64,000 bases of DNA from Escherichia phage ph0021: the sequence record OP557970.1. One strand, given 5' to 3'. Under the pieces are notes generated by a model that did no database searches, had not been told where the DNA came from, and saw only the letters and a program-made list of their open reading frames with translations. The translations under genes were made by a program, and so were the position numbers. Each line of letters begins with the position of its first letter. Position 1 is the stretch's first letter. Positions 20,324 to 27,399 of the stretch are shown here, one piece after another.

Positions 20324-21911
<1,588 letters not shown>

Positions 21912-21938
21912 AATAAAATGGGCCTTGCGGCCCACTCC

Positions 21939-23117
21939 TTAAAAGTATTTTTTAAAACTCATCATAACTTTATCATCAACATCATTATCAATCTGTGCAA
22001 CAAGGTAAGATGACAATTCTACTTCTTGTGGCGCAGATTGAACATTATCAGAATTAAGATATTCACGAATCCAAGGATATGGATGTTTAACCGGAGCATC
22101 GGTAATTGGGCATGGAAGACCACACTGTTTCATACGAGATACAGTTAAGTAATCAATAAAGCTCCACATGCTATTTGTATTTAATCCAGGAACATCGCCA
22201 TCTTTAAATAAATGAACTGCCCAGTCTTTTTCCTGGCGGTTAACTTCCATGAAAATATCAACTGCTTCTTGTTCACACTCTTGAGCAATTTTAACCCATT
22301 CATCGCCATCAGTACCGGATTGAAGCTGACGAATAATATATTGGGTGCCTTTAAGGTGAAGCTGCTCATCACGTGCAATGAACTTCATAATCTTGGCATT
22401 ACCTTCCATGATTTCCATGTTCTTATGGAAGTTAAAGGTACATGCAAAAGATACATAAAAACGAATAGCTTCCAATGCGTTGATTACATGCAAACAGAGG
22501 TAAAGAGATTTCATTAGCTCACGCTTCCAATATGTCTCATGCTCAATAGCATCTTCAATAACGTCTTCGTCTGCATTAATTTCTTTTTGGTATTCGATAT
22601 CAGCTTTAGCGTTTTCCCAATAACGAGTTTTAGTCAGAACATCATCATAATAACGTCCAATGGATTCAGCACGTTTCATAATAGCTTCATCTAATACAAT
22701 CTCATCAAATACCTTTGACGGATCAGTATAAAGATTTCGCATGATATGGGTATATGAACGGCTGTGAATAGTTTCACTAAAAGTCCATGTAGCAACCCAT
22801 GTATCAAGACTTGGGTCTGAAATTAACGACATAAGTACAGCAGACGGTGCACGACCTTGAATGCTATCTAGAAGTGATTGATACTTCAGGTTATTAGTAA
22901 AAATATCTTGCTGATATTGAGGAAGCTTGTTAAATTGCGCAGCATCCATCATTAAGTTTACTTCTTCAGGACGCCAGAAAAATGACAACTGCTTTTCGGT
23001 TAAATCTTCAAAAACTTTATGACGTTGAATATCGTAACGCGCAATACCAAGACCTGAACCGAAGAACATAGGTTCTTTTAAAACATCAACTGGATTTGTA
23101 TTAAAAACTGTAGACAT
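21939..23117 (-). CDS. nrdB: ribonucleotide reductase small subunit
   Basis: Continuous ORF with ferritin-like R2 fold residues; likely start MSTVFNTNPVD; no intron interruption visible. Confidence 0.9.
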   Translation of the reverse strand: MSTVFNTNPVDVLKEPMFFGSGLGIARYDIQRHKVFEDLTEKQLSFFWRPEEVNLMMDAAQFNKLPQYQQDIFTNNLKYQSLLDSIQGRAPSAVLMSLISDPSLDTWVATWTFSETIHSRSYTHIMRNLYTDPSKVFDEIVLDEAIMKRAESIGRYYDDVLTKTRYWENAKADIEYQKEINADEDVIEDAIEHETYWKRELMKSLYLCLHVINALEAIRFYVSFACTFNFHKNMEIMEGNAKIMKFIARDEQLHLKGTQYIIRQLQSGTDGDEWVKIAQECEQEAVDIFMEVNRQEKDWAVHLFKDGDVPGLNTNSMWSFIDYLTVSRMKQCGLPCPITDAPVKHPYPWIREYLNSDNVQSAPQEVELSSYLVAQIDNDVDDKVMMSFKKYF

Positions 23118-23848
23118 TAATTTTTCCTCTTTAAAATTCTGCCGCGTTTCCAACCTGGCGGTATAATATCATCTTTACCTATAAGCGTGCATTCACTTCC
23201 ATTATTAATCCATTTCTTACCGCGGATTCCTTTATAATCTCTTGGCTGTATTTTGTCAAACTTTGCGTCAAGCTGATATGCCCATCGAAATCCATAGGCA
23301 TATTGAAATTTACCCTCAGCACAATATTTGATATTTGACCCGTTTCCATTAACTGACCTGGACGCTGCGGCAATAGAGTGAAAGGTTTCTATGAAATCCC
23401 CATCTAATGAGAATTTATGTATTTCGATAGATGGGCATGCATACCTATTCACATTTGATACATGTTGTTTAGTTTCGTTTTTATGATGCTTGCCTAACAT
23501 TCCTCTAGGATGAGGATTATTTTTCCAATATTTCTTAAAGAAATCAGAATTAGCTTTAGCAAATAATTTTCTGTGCAAGCTATACAATCTGTTATTAATT
23601 CTATTACCAGCTTTATCTGTTGCCATTAACGTTAACGCAGAGGCAAGACCAAAATGGCCTTCATTTATCTTGCATAGTAATAGATGCGCTATAAAATGTT
23701 CTCTAGCTGTTAATTCAACTAAATTTTCTTTATCATCAGAACCTCCCATGCATTTAGGGACTATATGATGTGTCTCTTTATATTCGGATAAAGGTTCCCG
23801 AGCCTGAGCTCGGGAAATTAGGTCATTATAGATTTTTTGATAATTCAT
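23117..23848 (-). CDS. HNH homing endonuclease (MobE-like)
   Basis: 243 aa; His-Me finger motif HHIVPKCMGGSDDKENLVELTAREHFIAH; sits between nrdA and nrdB where T4 carries mobE. Confidence 0.75.
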   Translation of the reverse strand: MNYQKIYNDLISRAQAREPLSEYKETHHIVPKCMGGSDDKENLVELTAREHFIAHLLLCKINEGHFGLASALTLMATDKAGNRINNRLYSLHRKLFAKANSDFFKKYWKNNPHPRGMLGKHHKNETKQHVSNVNRYACPSIEIHKFSLDGDFIETFHSIAAASRSVNGNGSNIKYCAEGKFQYAYGFRWAYQLDAKFDKIQPRDYKGIRGKKWINNGSECTLIGKDDIIPPGWKRGRILKRKN

Positions 23849-26112
23849 TACAATTTACACGCTGCACAATCGTCGGCTTTAGGAGTTTCTATTTCATAAT
23901 CATCAGTACCAGAACCATCACGGGTATTATGATAATAGAAATTTTTAATGCCATAATACCATCCGTATAGCATGTCATCAATCATTATTGACATTGGAAC
24001 CTTTCCTTTTGGAAAAATCTGCGGGTCATAATATGTATTCGCTGAAGCTGATTGACATACCCATTTCAGCATAATAGCTACCTGCGTAAGATAAGGTTTA
24101 TTACCTTTCTTAGCTAATTTCCATGTATAATCATAGAGGTCTATGTTATGCTCAATATTGGGCACGACTTGATTAAAGGAACCCTCTTTTGATTCTTTAA
24201 CAGAGACTGGTCCACGTGGAGGCTCGATACCGTTTGTACTGTTAGAAACTTGGGAAGATGACTCACATGGCATAAGTGCTGATAATGTGCTATTACGGAT
24301 GCCAAAGAGCTTAAGGTCTTCCCGCAGCGCCGACCAGTCACAAACGTATTTTGGAGCTGCGATTTGGTCAATCTTTTTATTGTACCAGTCGATAGGTAAT
24401 TCGCCTCGAGACCAACGAGTGTCTGAATAATATTCGCAAGGTCCTTTTTCTTTGGCGAGCTTAATGGATGCTTTAATGAGTCCATACTGTAATCTCTCAA
24501 ATAGTTCATGTGTTAAATCGTTAGCATCTTCATAAGAAGCAAAGTTACTTGCCAGCCAAGCTGCATAGTTAGTAACACCTACACCGAGGTTACGACGCTT
24601 TTTAGCTTTTTCTGCTTCAGGAACTGGATATCCTTGGTAATCCAAAAGATTATCAAGAGCACGAACTTGGACTTCTGCCAATTCATTAATTTTATCTTGG
24701 TCTTGCCAGTCAAAATTATCCAGTACGAATGCAGAGAGAGTACACAATCCAATTTCAGCATCAGGACTATTCACATCATTTGTTGGAATAGCAATTTCAC
24801 AACACAAGTTACTCTGACGAATAGGTGCCTTTTCACGAATAAACGGAGTATAATTATTCGTATTATCGATGAACTGCACATAAATCCTTGCTGTTCCTGA
24901 GCGTTCAGTCATGAGCAATTCAAATAGTTCACGGGCTTTAATGCGCTTTTTACGAATATTAGGGTCTTTTTCTGCTGCTTCGTATAATTCGCGGAAACGG
25001 TCTTGGTCTTTAAAATAAGAATAATAAAGCTCGCCACCCATTTCATGCGGACTGAACAAAGTAATGTAGTCGTTCTTTCCAAAACGTTCCATCATCAAAT
25101 CATTCAGCTGGACGCCATAATCCATATGACGGATACGGTTTTCTTCTACACCTTTGTTATTTTTCAAAACGAGAAGATTTTCAACTTCCAAATGCCAAAT
25201 AGGATAATAAGCAGTAGCAGCGCCGCCACGAATTCCACCCTGTGAGCATGATTTAACAGCAGTCTGAAAATGTTTCCAAAAAGGAATAACACCAGTATGG
25301 CGTACTTCACCCATGCCAATCTTGGAACCTTCGGCACGAATCATACCAACGTTAATACCAATTCCAGCACGTTTGGAGATATATTCAACAATTGAAGCGG
25401 AAGCCTTATTGATAGACTTTAATGAATCACCTGCCTCAATAACAACACATGAACTAAACTGTCGAGTCGGAGTACGACAACCAGCCATAATAGGAGTTGG
25501 TAATGAAATCTGTCGAGTAGATACTGCTTCATAAAAATGAATAACATGTTTTAATCTATCAACAGGTTCATCTTGATGCAATGCCATTCCAATAGTCATA
25601 AATGCAAACTGTGGAGTTTCATAAATTTGACCAGTGGTTTTATCTTTAACTAGATATTTTTCTTTTAATTGCATCGCCCCGGAATAAGTAAATTCCATAT
25701 CCCGCTCATGCTTAATTTTTGATTCTAAAAATGTAATTTCTTCTGCTGAATATTTTGACAATAATTCAGGGTCATATTTACCTTCATTTACACAGTAAGA
25801 AATATGGTCAATAAATGAACATGGTTCATACTGTCCGTACACATGTTTACGAAGAGCGAACATTAGACAACGTGCAGCTACATATTGATAATCAGGCTCT
25901 TCAACCGAAATAGAATTCGCAGCGGCCTTAATGACAATAGTCTGAATATCATCAGTTGTCATTCCATCACGGAGATAAGATTTAATATTTTCATATAATT
26001 CATAAGGATCGACTGATGTTCCTTCAGCTGCCCAAGATAAAACTTTAATAATTTTTTGTGGGTCAAAGCTCTGAGAAACACCACTACTTTTGATAACATT
26101 AATTAATTGCAT
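23848..26112 (-). CDS. nrdA: ribonucleotide reductase large subunit
   Basis: 754 aa, same as T4 NrdA; class I RNR motifs. Confidence 0.95.
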   Translation of the reverse strand: MQLINVIKSSGVSQSFDPQKIIKVLSWAAEGTSVDPYELYENIKSYLRDGMTTDDIQTIVIKAAANSISVEEPDYQYVAARCLMFALRKHVYGQYEPCSFIDHISYCVNEGKYDPELLSKYSAEEITFLESKIKHERDMEFTYSGAMQLKEKYLVKDKTTGQIYETPQFAFMTIGMALHQDEPVDRLKHVIHFYEAVSTRQISLPTPIMAGCRTPTRQFSSCVVIEAGDSLKSINKASASIVEYISKRAGIGINVGMIRAEGSKIGMGEVRHTGVIPFWKHFQTAVKSCSQGGIRGGAATAYYPIWHLEVENLLVLKNNKGVEENRIRHMDYGVQLNDLMMERFGKNDYITLFSPHEMGGELYYSYFKDQDRFRELYEAAEKDPNIRKKRIKARELFELLMTERSGTARIYVQFIDNTNNYTPFIREKAPIRQSNLCCEIAIPTNDVNSPDAEIGLCTLSAFVLDNFDWQDQDKINELAEVQVRALDNLLDYQGYPVPEAEKAKKRRNLGVGVTNYAAWLASNFASYEDANDLTHELFERLQYGLIKASIKLAKEKGPCEYYSDTRWSRGELPIDWYNKKIDQIAAPKYVCDWSALREDLKLFGIRNSTLSALMPCESSSQVSNSTNGIEPPRGPVSVKESKEGSFNQVVPNIEHNIDLYDYTWKLAKKGNKPYLTQVAIMLKWVCQSASANTYYDPQIFPKGKVPMSIMIDDMLYGWYYGIKNFYYHNTRDGSGTDDYEIETPKADDCAACKL

Positions 26113-26669: not shown

Positions 26670-26984
26670 TTACACCGCCATTTTTCCTTTCAAGACGCCG
26701 TGGGACTGATAATCTTTGAGAACGAAATCTTTAGGCCTGAGTTTAAGAATGTATTCCAATTGTTCTTTAGTAGAAAGATAGCGGAATTTATAAGGCAATC
26801 CGCCTATTATCAGTTCACAAAGCTCTTTAGGTTCACGACGCAAAATTTCTTTACATTGTTCTACGTGATTCATATAGATATGAGTATTACCGCCAGAAAA
26901 TATCAAATCTCCAGGAATAAGATTACACATCTTAGCTACAATATGAACTAACGCAGCATATGATGCAATATTAAATGGAAGCAT
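26670..26984 (-). pseudogene. td: thymidylate synthase exon 2 only (td remnant)
   Basis: Translation LPFNIASYAALVHIVAKMCNLIPGDLIFSGGNTHIYMNH is the TS C-terminal third; the apparent start ATG lies in intron-derived sequence; no exon 1 found in the window. Confidence 0.75.
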
Positions 26985-27128
26985 TATGTTCAGATAAGGT
27001 CGTTAATCTTACCCCGGAATTATATCCAGCTGCATGTCACCATGCAGATCAGACTATATCTCCAACTTGTTAAAGCAAGTTGTCTATCGTTTCGAGTCAC
27101 TTGACCCTACTCCCCAAAGGGATAGTCG
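26985..27128 (-). mobile_element. 3' portion of td group I intron (remnant)
   Basis: Non-coding, structured GC-rich segment between the td exon 2 splice junction and an ORF ending in the I-TevI C-terminus. Confidence 0.55.
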
Positions 27129-27380
27129 TTAGGCATTTATGTAGAACCAATTCCATTTATCAGATTTTACACGATAAGTAACTAATCCAGACGAAATTTT
27201 AAAATGTCTAGCTGCATCTGCTGCACAATCAAAAATAACCCCATCACATTCATCTTCCCATCCCATATCACGTAAAAGATGTTCAGCTTTTTCAACGAGT
27301 TCAGAATCTTTACCAATGATATTAAAATACCATTTACCTCTAACTTCTGAATCTTTGATGCTCTGACGTTGTAATCTCAT
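27129..27380 (-). CDS. chimeric ORF carrying the I-TevI C-terminal HTH DNA-binding domain
   Basis: 83 aa; last ~39 aa CDGVIFDCAADAARHFKISSGLVTYRVKSDKWNWFYINA match the I-TevI C-terminus; N-terminal 44 aa unrelated; own early promoter and AAGGAG RBS. Confidence 0.6.
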   Translation of the reverse strand: MRLQRQSIKDSEVRGKWYFNIIGKDSELVEKAEHLLRDMGWEDECDGVIFDCAADAARHFKISSGLVTYRVKSDKWNWFYINA

Positions 27381-27399
27381 TTTATTCTCCTTAGTTGAT

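Follow-up and report, generated by a model that had tools for sequence, protein, structure and literature searches.

Introduction

Mob endonucleases encoded by free-standing genes have been known from the nrd locus for some 20 years, and the comparative paper of Sandegren et al. from 2005 (NAR 33:6203) may have described the two classes of mobE already. The only characterized MobE is that of phage T4, for which alone an HNH-dependent nick and preferential inheritance in crosses have been shown (Wilson and Edgell, 2009; PMC2790892). The nick was mapped at nt 122-126 of nrdB, T2 being a sensitive substrate; a hairpin within T4 mobE terminates 30-50% of the transcripts, and T4 has a known nrdB middle promoter (PMC2790892). 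Aeh1 MobE and the Hef endonuclease of phage U5 also target aerobic ribonucleotide reductase genes of T4-like phages (PMC2988022). A further mobE gene (mobE/nrdB.2, RB3_226) is present in RB3, as well as in RB5, RB6, RB7, RB9, and RB10; a literature search found no biochemical characterization of RB3 MobE or of the protein presented here.

The DNA analyzed in this work, hereafter the window, is a 64,000-nt stretch of Escherichia phage ph0021 (OP557970.1), a Tequatrovirus, and is 100% identical to GenBank OR584013. Its nrd locus differs from that of Aeh1, where nrdA is split by an inserted mobE, and from the Hef system, where an unrelated protein takes the place of mobE.

The mobE Gene and the Intron-Free nrdB

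The locus comprises the following features:

23848-26112, minus strand: nrdA, large subunit of class Ia ribonucleotide reductase, 754 aa (Pfam ATP-cone, RNR large N and barrel domains)
23117-23848, minus strand: mobE, RB3-type allele, a free-standing HNH homing endonuclease ORF of 243 aa with an ATG start (ORF listing)
21939-23117, minus strand: nrdB, small subunit, uninterrupted, 392 aa from the ATG at 23117 (Pfam Ribonuc_red_sm, 4e-37)
22441-22442, no strand assigned: empty insertion site of the nrdB group I intron, between nt 676 and 677 of nrdB (splice-junction reconstruction against T4 and RB3)

The earlier note, made from the letters of this DNA, had described a 243-aa ORF with an HNH motif (HHIVPKCMGGSDDKENLVELTAREHFIAH) that lies between nrdA and nrdB and touches both, and the locus bears this out: the nrdA stop and the mobE ATG, like the mobE stop and the nrdB ATG, share TAATG overlaps. 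For nrdB the ORF finder gave a TTG start at 23153, which is an upstream extension. The gene sits on the same strand as its two neighbors and between them, as it does in RB3 and T4. RB3 mobE has the same length, position and TAATG overlaps, is about 98% identical in DNA and differs at 1 amino acid in 243, while the ORF also matches PHROG 655 "homing endonuclease" (1e-57). It is therefore the RB3 form of mobE, real and intact, beside an ordinary intron-free nrdB. The gene itself is already known, being annotated in the phage's own record and in those of dozens of relatives; elements of this kind are familiar, and the finding as the note stated it adds little.

That nrdB is one continuous frame, also claimed earlier, was confirmed. 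An Rfam scan at gathering thresholds detected no RNA family, group I introns included, in the whole 64 kb, and nrdB is colinear with T4 and RB3 nrdB once their exons are spliced; the scan and the splice-junction reconstruction together rule out a cryptic intron. The note had presented the intron-minus state as a contrast with T4, whereas it is the usual one: the intron occurs in only 129 of about 650 related records, so with some 80% of relatives lacking it the intron-free state here is ordinary, and exactly this colinear arrangement was found in at least 28 records. The note had called the configuration relevant to trans-homing and marker exclusion; trans-homing of an intron does not apply, since none is present. 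RB3 differs in this respect, as its nrdB bears a group I intron in which I-TevIII is intact. FriedrichMiescher (Bas39), another phage with the RB3-type gene, has an intron-free nrdB like the window. The ORF of the window is not intron-encoded, being flanked by two complete genes with no Rfam intron in the window, and its identity to RB3 I-TevIII is only about 23%.

Domain Architecture of the Protein

Three modules were located in the protein:

23684-23779, minus strand: HNH (His-Me finger) catalytic core, aa 24-55 (invariant residues, AF2 fold and fold match)
23318-23410, minus strand: DNA-binding module of the NUMOD1 helix-turn-helix type, aa 147-177 (Pfam NUMOD1 at 25.9 bits, gathering score 22.8)
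23129-23227, minus strand: small C-terminal beta module, aa 208-240, containing KKWINNGSECTLIGKDDIIPPGWKRGR (AF2 strands 211-215 and 220-224, pLDDT about 90)

The HNH catalytic residues are intact, with H27, H28, N42, H51, and H55 invariant in an alignment of 42 sequences that reaches relatives down to about 32% identity. The Pfam HNH model scores 19.3 bits on the window protein against a gathering score of 21.4, and exceeds that cut-off in its close relatives T6 MobE (24.4 bits) and P0018 (24.1 bits). In the AF2 model (mean pLDDT 88.7 for the whole protein) the core consists of strands 25-28 and 43-46 followed by helix 48-61 (pLDDT about 95), a predicted beta-beta-alpha-metal fold. The NUMOD1 module is modeled with strands 143-146 and 152-156 and helices 159-165 and 170-177 (pLDDT about 95). 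At the C-terminus, an IPxGW motif is kept in the alignment consensus, and the equivalent position matches Pfam I-HmuI_NUMOD-like in some relatives; full-length relatives carry NUMOD1 with or without that domain. The small module is presumed to provide an extra DNA contact.

Searching the PDB with the single sequence returned nothing significant, and a profile search gave weak matches to HNH motifs (group II intron maturase, McrA, Cas8-HNH; E between 0.013 and 0.2), so a fold search was needed to reach I-HmuI. This HNH nicking endonuclease of Bacillus phage SPO1 (PDB 1U3E) is the best fold match of the AF2 model, with a probability of 0.98 over 182 columns at 11% sequence identity. The TM-score is low (0.22-0.29) owing to the flexible arrangement of the modules. 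I-HmuI likewise begins with an HNH domain, continues in extended helices and ends in a helix-turn-helix, although it is intron-encoded and the gene of the window is free-standing. The layout is thus modular and I-HmuI-like, with an N-terminal His-Me finger, a linker helix, the NUMOD1 helix-turn-helix and the small C-terminal module. T4 MobB shows 38% identity to the protein over 191 aa; its gene lies at a different locus (the alpha-gt region). The relative of the window ORF in Salmonella phage Melville is annotated as "MobB-like."

Comparison with the T4/T6-Type MobE

The proposal of a MobE-type free-standing endonuclease holds as far as the HNH domain, the mobE position and the annotation of the RB3 gene go, but the enzyme is not of the T4 type. 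T4 mobE is about 97% identical in DNA over codons 1-55, a stretch that covers the HNH core and the internal terminator hairpin, and its DNA homology stops at codon 55. T6 MobE is homologous over the N-terminal 100 aa or so (66% identity); toward the C-terminus no homology to T4/T6 MobE was detected, in DNA after codon 55 or in protein after about residue 100. The C-terminal modules differ accordingly in kind, being NUMOD1 in the window and NUMOD3 plus a zinc finger, without NUMOD1, in T6 and T4. The T6/Lutter-type MobE, of 213 aa and at the same locus, combines HNH, NUMOD3 and a Cys4-type finger and is the intact form of T4 mobE plus nrdB.1; in T4 itself the NUMOD3-type repeats are in mobE and the zinc finger is split off as nrdB.1. 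By sequence, then, the gene belongs to the RB3 class of mobE and not to the T4/T6 class. At least two modular enzymes go by the name mobE, and what experiments have shown for T4, the only data of that kind, should not be assumed for the RB3 class.

Expression Signals

Two candidate regulatory features lie within mobE:

23795-23816, minus strand: internal terminator-type hairpin in the 5' coding region, with a 9-bp stem, a 4-nt loop and a weak U tract (fold energy -19.1 kcal/mol, z = -3.5)
23163-23186, minus strand: candidate middle promoter of MotA type for nrdB (GCTTATA-N11-TATTAT), lying 46 nt before the nrdB ATG (loose pattern match)

The hairpin is identical in sequence in the window and T4, and its pairing is preserved through a compensatory change in RZ and FelixPlatter. 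A scan for sigma-70 promoters and terminators gave no enrichment over shuffles; it missed the hairpin because of the short U tract. The candidate promoter, a weak one, has the position of T4's known nrdB middle promoter. The MotA-type pattern as such was rejected as evidence because it is too loose (60 matches in the window, with 42 expected), and the candidate is not conserved in RZ. An nrdB Shine-Dalgarno sequence (AGAGGA) lies inside mobE.

T4 mobE resembles the gene also in its position between nrdA and nrdB and its UAAUG coupling to nrdA. By this identity with T4, mobE would have neither a promoter nor a ribosome-binding site of its own and would be translated from nrdA transcripts through stop/start coupling. 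The hairpin, 33 nt into the coding region, would hold its expression low, while nrdB would be re-supplied by the promoter and the Shine-Dalgarno sequence in the 3' end of mobE.

Distribution and Selection

The RB3-type allele was found in 54 of about 650 related phage records, and closely related mobE-less phages have a clean 51-nt spacer between nrdA and nrdB. Such patchy presence and absence is the signature of a mobile element and not of a fixed host function. Four relatives at 48-73% identity, in T4-like phages of Yersinia, Salmonella and Vibrio, all lie exactly between nrdA and nrdB. The ORF was intact in 10 of the 10 close alleles checked, and dN/dS is 0.02-0.13 over the whole protein, also against relatives at 48-78% identity, values that point to a putative functional homing endonuclease.

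An inactive relic of a homing endonuclease, persisting only for the nrdB expression signals that it contains, would be conceivable at this position, since in T4 the region has come apart into mobE and nrdB.1 and I-TevIII is nonfunctional, so that decay is common here. Because every allele checked has a full-length ORF, the catalytic residues are all invariant and purifying selection acts across the whole protein, we regard such a relic as very improbable. The same strong selection, together with long-term retention at a single locus across genera and with the regulatory signals for nrdB carried inside the gene, would fit an HNH protein that has been domesticated for a role other than homing. 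It might tune nrdA and nrdB expression through the terminator and promoter, or serve as a weapon or regulator in competition between phages, excluding markers without spreading itself; that MobE regulates another nuclease was left open by Wilson and Edgell (PMC2790892). The patchy distribution, with clean spacers in close relatives, and the diverged flank that travels with the gene speak against domestication, and we hold it to be unlikely. A functional, mobile endonuclease accounts for the locus better, and we turn to where it may cut.

Linked Polymorphisms and Putative Target

The positions that bear on the target are these:

22992-22996, no strand assigned: equivalent of the T4 MobE nick sites, nt 122-126 of nrdB, identical to T2 (alignment to T2; nick from PMC2790892)
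23849-23875, minus strand: last 28 nt of nrdA, a block of fixed differences and part of the proposed target or co-conversion zone (mobE-bearing against empty loci)
23947-23973, minus strand: dimorphic patch of NrdA, MLYGWYYGI here and LLYFWYFGG in most mobE-less phages (all RB3-type loci; RZ against VR7)

Nine RB3-type mobE-bearing loci were compared with 14 empty ones, and the last 28 nt of nrdA, with seven fixed differences, proved to be the only block with fixed differences between the two groups. NrdA ends in ADDCAACKL-TAA in the RB3-type phages and in AEDCSSCKL-TGA in the mobE-less ones; among the latter, T2 joins the AEDCSSCKL end to the patch MLYGWYYGI, while RB18 and AR1 join it to LLYFWYFGG. 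Over nt 1-670 of nrdB there were no fixed differences (nine RB3-type against 13 empty loci), and nt 4-6 vary even among mobE-bearing phages. T4/T6-type loci, used as a positive control, gave the reverse picture, with 20 fixed differences in nt 6-123 of nrdB, ending at the mapped nick, and only one in nrdA. The linked flanking DNA is thus on the nrdB side in the T4/T6 type and on the nrdA side in the RB3 type. RZ (gene present) and VR7 (empty), compared with each other, are 96% identical over nrdB and 69% identical over the last 120 nt of nrdA. This pair comes from another genus and stands as a replicate. The linked-polymorphism argument draws on nine related mobE-bearing loci and one cross-genus pair, which are not independent homing events.

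These population patterns suggest that the target of the RB3-type MobE probably differs from that of T4 MobE, which is the one new point of this work. The putative target is most likely the 3'-terminal part of nrdA or the junction, and would lie somewhere within the final 30-125 nt or so of nrdA and the 51-nt spacer that empty phages have.

The opposing view is that both enzymes share mechanism and target, the RB3 type also nicking the non-coding strand of nrdB near nt 122-126 in mobE-less phages, with a different C-terminal domain reading the same conserved stretch that encodes FFWRPEE. Locus, HNH core and terminator are indeed common to the two genes, HNH homing enzymes can act on targets that vary in sequence, and Wilson and Edgell placed RB3 among the mobE-containing phages (PMC2790892). 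However, the DNA-binding modules are unrelated, and no nrdB polymorphism is linked to the gene. Moreover, nrdB of the window is identical to that of sensitive T2 over nt 91-180, carrying none of the protective polymorphisms that T4-type phages have at nt 96-135, including those of the nick region (nt 114-131). Since the nick site is of the sensitive, T2-like kind, the T4 target is not simply transferable to the window protein. Identity to T2 is not a strict exclusion, as self-nicking at such a site might be tolerated, yet a shared target seems to us improbable.

The explanation that we favor, with some reserve, is that the RB3-type mobE encodes a functional, free-standing, modular HNH homing endonuclease directed at the 3' end of nrdA or the junction. 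When the phage shares a host cell with a relative whose junction is empty, MobE would nick or cut the genome of that relative, and repair would then copy mobE and the adjoining 3' end of nrdA into it.

A wider reading, toward which we are almost evenly disposed while leaning to doubt, is that two lineages of homing endonucleases compete for the one nrdA-nrdB junction. They would have a recombining 5' module (HNH core and terminator) in common but differ in their DNA-binding domains, and would cut on opposite sides of the junction, the RB3 type at the 3' end of nrdA or the junction and the T6/T4 type at nt 122-126 of nrdB, each leaving its own "immunity" flank. T4 and T6, which combine an RB3-like nrdA end with a T6-like nrdB start, would then be doubly resistant mosaics produced by this competition, and the phage of the window would still be sensitive to the T4/T6-type MobE. 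If the two classes truly cut opposite sides of one junction, the locus would offer a compact natural system for competition between selfish endonucleases. It would equally suit the study of how domain swapping retargets an HNH nuclease, and of how elements of this kind mold the mosaic borders within essential genes of phages. Pattern scans for further junctions in IMG/VR and the metagenome contigs yielded only 11 loci, which serve as extra samples and are too few for statistics.

The dimorphic NrdA patch was fixed in the first sample and was considered as an immunity mark of the endonuclease of the window. It was rejected in that role, as a 61-nt search found it in 182 records, including mobE-less T2 as well as T6 and T4, and it is therefore not specific to this gene. 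As the patch tracks the gene in RZ against VR7, it may fall inside the co-conversion zone.

The nrdA–nrdB Junction of ph0021

The nrd region of phage ph0021 follows the T4 gene order on the minus strand (pseT ... rnlA - denA - nrdB - mobE - nrdA - nrdA.1 - nrdA.2), according to the ORF listing of the window. The features concerned are:

21501-21935, minus strand: denA (GIY-YIG endonuclease II), next after nrdB
21939-23117, minus strand: nrdB, 392 aa counted from the ATG at 23117 (Pfam Ribonuc_red_sm, 4e-37)
22518-22652: hypervariable patch of nrdB (nt 466-600)
23117-23848, minus strand: 243-aa ORF with ATG start, mobE of the RB3 class
23848-26112, minus strand: nrdA, 754 aa, with the ATP-cone and both RNR large-subunit domains (Pfam)
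23947-23973: dimorphic patch in a conserved part of NrdA (aa ~709-717)

An earlier note had described a 243-aa ORF with an HNH motif filling the position between nrdA and nrdB and touching both, and this was borne out: the quoted motif is present and TAATG stop/start overlaps occur at both ends. Inspection of the junction sequence revealed no Shine-Dalgarno sequence belonging to the ORF itself, while the AGAGGA Shine-Dalgarno of nrdB sits within its 3' end. As the gene and its exact arrangement are already public and annotated, the observation in itself is neither new nor unusual. What interest is left lies in a likely target difference between the two mobE classes, which was not found in PMC2790892, PMC2988022 or PMC5238451 and may be covered by Sandegren et al. 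(2005).

For the 4.8-kb nrd stretch, GenBank OR584013 ('Pseudomonas phage PsgM02F') is a 100% match, and at least 28 Tequatrovirus records of E. coli, Shigella, Yersinia and Salmonella are colinear with it at 96-98% identity; their counterparts of the ORF are annotated as 'homing endonuclease'. The RB3 counterpart, annotated mobE (nrdB.2), also has 243 aa, with one amino-acid difference. OR584013 lists Pseudomonas coronafaciens as host, yet the nrd stretch has 96-98% identity to many E. coli, Shigella and Yersinia Tequatroviruses, and a second 'Pseudomonas' record (PV654520) has the same mobE allele; the host assignment of OR584013 may be worth checking. Using the allele-specific part of the gene as query led to 54 records, and a junction-spanning query to 649 related records, most of them empty (51 nt between nrdA and nrdB). 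At least four further states were detected besides the empty and RB3-type ones:

213-aa HNH gene: T6, Lutter, FelixPlatter
mobE (141 aa) plus nrdB.1 (83 aa): T4 (L003, 6717-7417, corresponding to T4 139716-140416)
263-aa ORF whose fold is that of a D12-class N6-adenine methyltransferase (Pfam PF02086, 1e-23): T4_ev240 (L005, 1954-2745) and LR990704
1608-nt insertion (~1.6 kb): IMG/VR contig 2974742932_000001 (L024)

The methyltransferase ORF may be the counterpart of 'hef' in phage U5. Additionally, in HY01 and fPS-90 (L014 and L015, 2949-3659) a homing endonuclease gene lies within nrdA, leaving two nrdA ORFs, an arrangement resembling the 'genes-in-pieces' of Aeh1 mobE.

The Encoded Endonuclease

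Pfam analysis placed a NUMOD1 domain at aa 147-177, above cut-off, and an HNH domain at aa 21-44 with 19.3 bits, slightly below the 21.4 cut-off, while PHROGs matched family 655, 'homing endonuclease' (1e-57). One database search returned 791 relatives. Four relatives from T4-like phages of Yersinia, Salmonella and Vibrio, 48-73% identical to the ph0021 protein, are likewise encoded in the nrdA-nrdB junction. The HNH catalytic residues, for which the earlier note had proposed an alignment, are not mutated, H27, H28, N42, H51 and H55 being invariant among 42 of the 791 relatives. With this alignment as input, AlphaFold gave a confident model (mean pLDDT 88.7) that combines a beta-beta-alpha core and long helices with a helix-turn-helix and, at the C-terminus, a small beta module. 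Of the solved structures, I-HmuI, an HNH homing endonuclease, matches the model best (probability 0.98), and the mode of action would be best described as that of a modular HNH homing endonuclease of the I-HmuI kind. The protein is under selection and no decaying relic, because the ORF is intact in all ten close alleles and dN/dS is 0.02-0.13 against these and relatives at 48-78% identity.

Comparison with T4 and T6 MobE

T4 MobE is the sole experimentally studied member (Wilson and Edgell, 2009; PMC2790892). Its gene has no promoter and is co-transcribed with nrdA, an internal terminator just past the AUG stops 30-50% of transcripts, and nrdB is driven by a middle promoter in the mobE 3' end (PMC2790892). 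The enzyme makes an HNH-dependent nick in T2 nrdB at nt 122-126, and polymorphisms surround this site in mobE-containing phages (PMC2790892). The window is ~97% identical to T4 from the nrdA end through codon 55 of the ORF, a stretch including the HNH core and the terminator hairpin (-19.1 kcal/mol, z = -3.5), whose pairing is kept by compensatory change in the diverged alleles of RZ and FelixPlatter. Past codon 55, up to the nrdB ATG, the two are unalignable; T6-type MobE there bears NUMOD3 repeats and a Cys-rich finger, whereas the ph0021 protein has its NUMOD1 helix-turn-helix. The name 'mobE' therefore covers at least two modular enzymes, which have a catalytic and regulatory 5' module in common but different DNA-binding parts. 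The T4 reference mobE is itself a broken copy of the 213-aa form, since nrdB.1 is identical at 82 of 83 positions to the C-terminal zinc-finger part of T6 MobE; T4 mobE and nrdB.1 lie in different reading frames, as pieces of a MobE intact in T6, Lutter and FelixPlatter. The MobE-type identity proposed earlier stood as regards name, position, N-terminal domain and regulation, which make the gene a mobE of the RB3 class, but did not extend to the C-terminal homology and protective nrdB polymorphisms of the T4/T6 class.

nrdB and Its Intron Site

That nrdB is uninterrupted, as previously claimed, was confirmed: it aligns colinearly to the T4 and RB3 exons once these are joined, and an Rfam scan of the whole window detected no RNA family. 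Splice-junction comparison with T4 and RB3 placed the empty group I intron site between nrdB nt 676 and 677. The RB3 intron sequence was found in 129 records (~20% of relatives), so intron-free nrdB is the usual state; among the 54 records with RB3-type mobE, at least 12 contain the intron as well, the remainder being like the window. The hypervariable patch precedes the intron site by 75-200 nt, contains indels and has 63-77% identity to other phages versus ~97% across the remaining gene. It varies inside every junction class and may have been left by a different endonuclease, e.g., I-TevIII or Hef.

Predicted Target

Nine RB3-type, 13-14 empty (including T2 and metagenomic contigs) and four T4/T6-type loci were compared over the final 450 nt of nrdA and the initial 670 nt of nrdB. 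T4/T6-type and empty loci are separated by 20 fixed differences in nrdB nt 6-123 and only one in nrdA; this block stops where experiment had placed the nick, validating the approach. The RB3-type pattern is the opposite, with no fixed difference from empty loci in the first 670 nt of nrdB, where even nt 4-6 vary among RB3-type loci, and seven in the terminal 28 nt of nrdA (ADDCAACKL-TAA vs AEDCSSCKL-TGA). In the window, nrdB nt 91-180 is identical to that of T2, the sensitive substrate of T4 MobE. A second genus repeats this pattern: the gene is present in Gaprivervirus RZ (78% DNA identity to the window over the junction query), the VR7 junction is empty, and the two are 96% identical in nrdB and up to 100% in parts of upstream nrdA, with only 69% in its last 120 nt. 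These patterns suggest, with moderate confidence, that the RB3-class enzyme homes into the empty junction by nicking or cutting the nrdA side or the junction, and not nrdB.

The NrdA dimorphism MLYGWYYGI/LLYFWYFGG (nine substitutions, 100-126 nt ahead of the nrdA stop) looked diagnostic in the first sample. It was rejected as a specific mark of this gene, the patch being present also in mobE-less T2, in T4 and T6, and in 182 records. It tracks the gene again in RZ versus VR7, and the dimorphism is common to Tequatrovirus and Gaprivervirus. T4 and T6 join an RB3-like nrdA end with a T6-type nrdB start, a mosaic that would fit recombination between the two mobE classes inside their shared 5' module.

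Elsewhere in the window, a 2.05-kb deletion relative to T4 was located at 26670-27394 (T4 143814-145865 absent). Lost with it are td exon 1 together with the 5' portion of the td intron, the greater part of I-TevI, and both frd and the 3' portion of frd.1, so that the phage appears to be without thymidylate synthase and dihydrofolate reductase. Two remnants are left:

26670-26984: td exon-2 ORF
27129-27380: 83-aa fusion ORF of DUF5417 (frd.1 N-terminus) and the I-TevI DNA-binding domain
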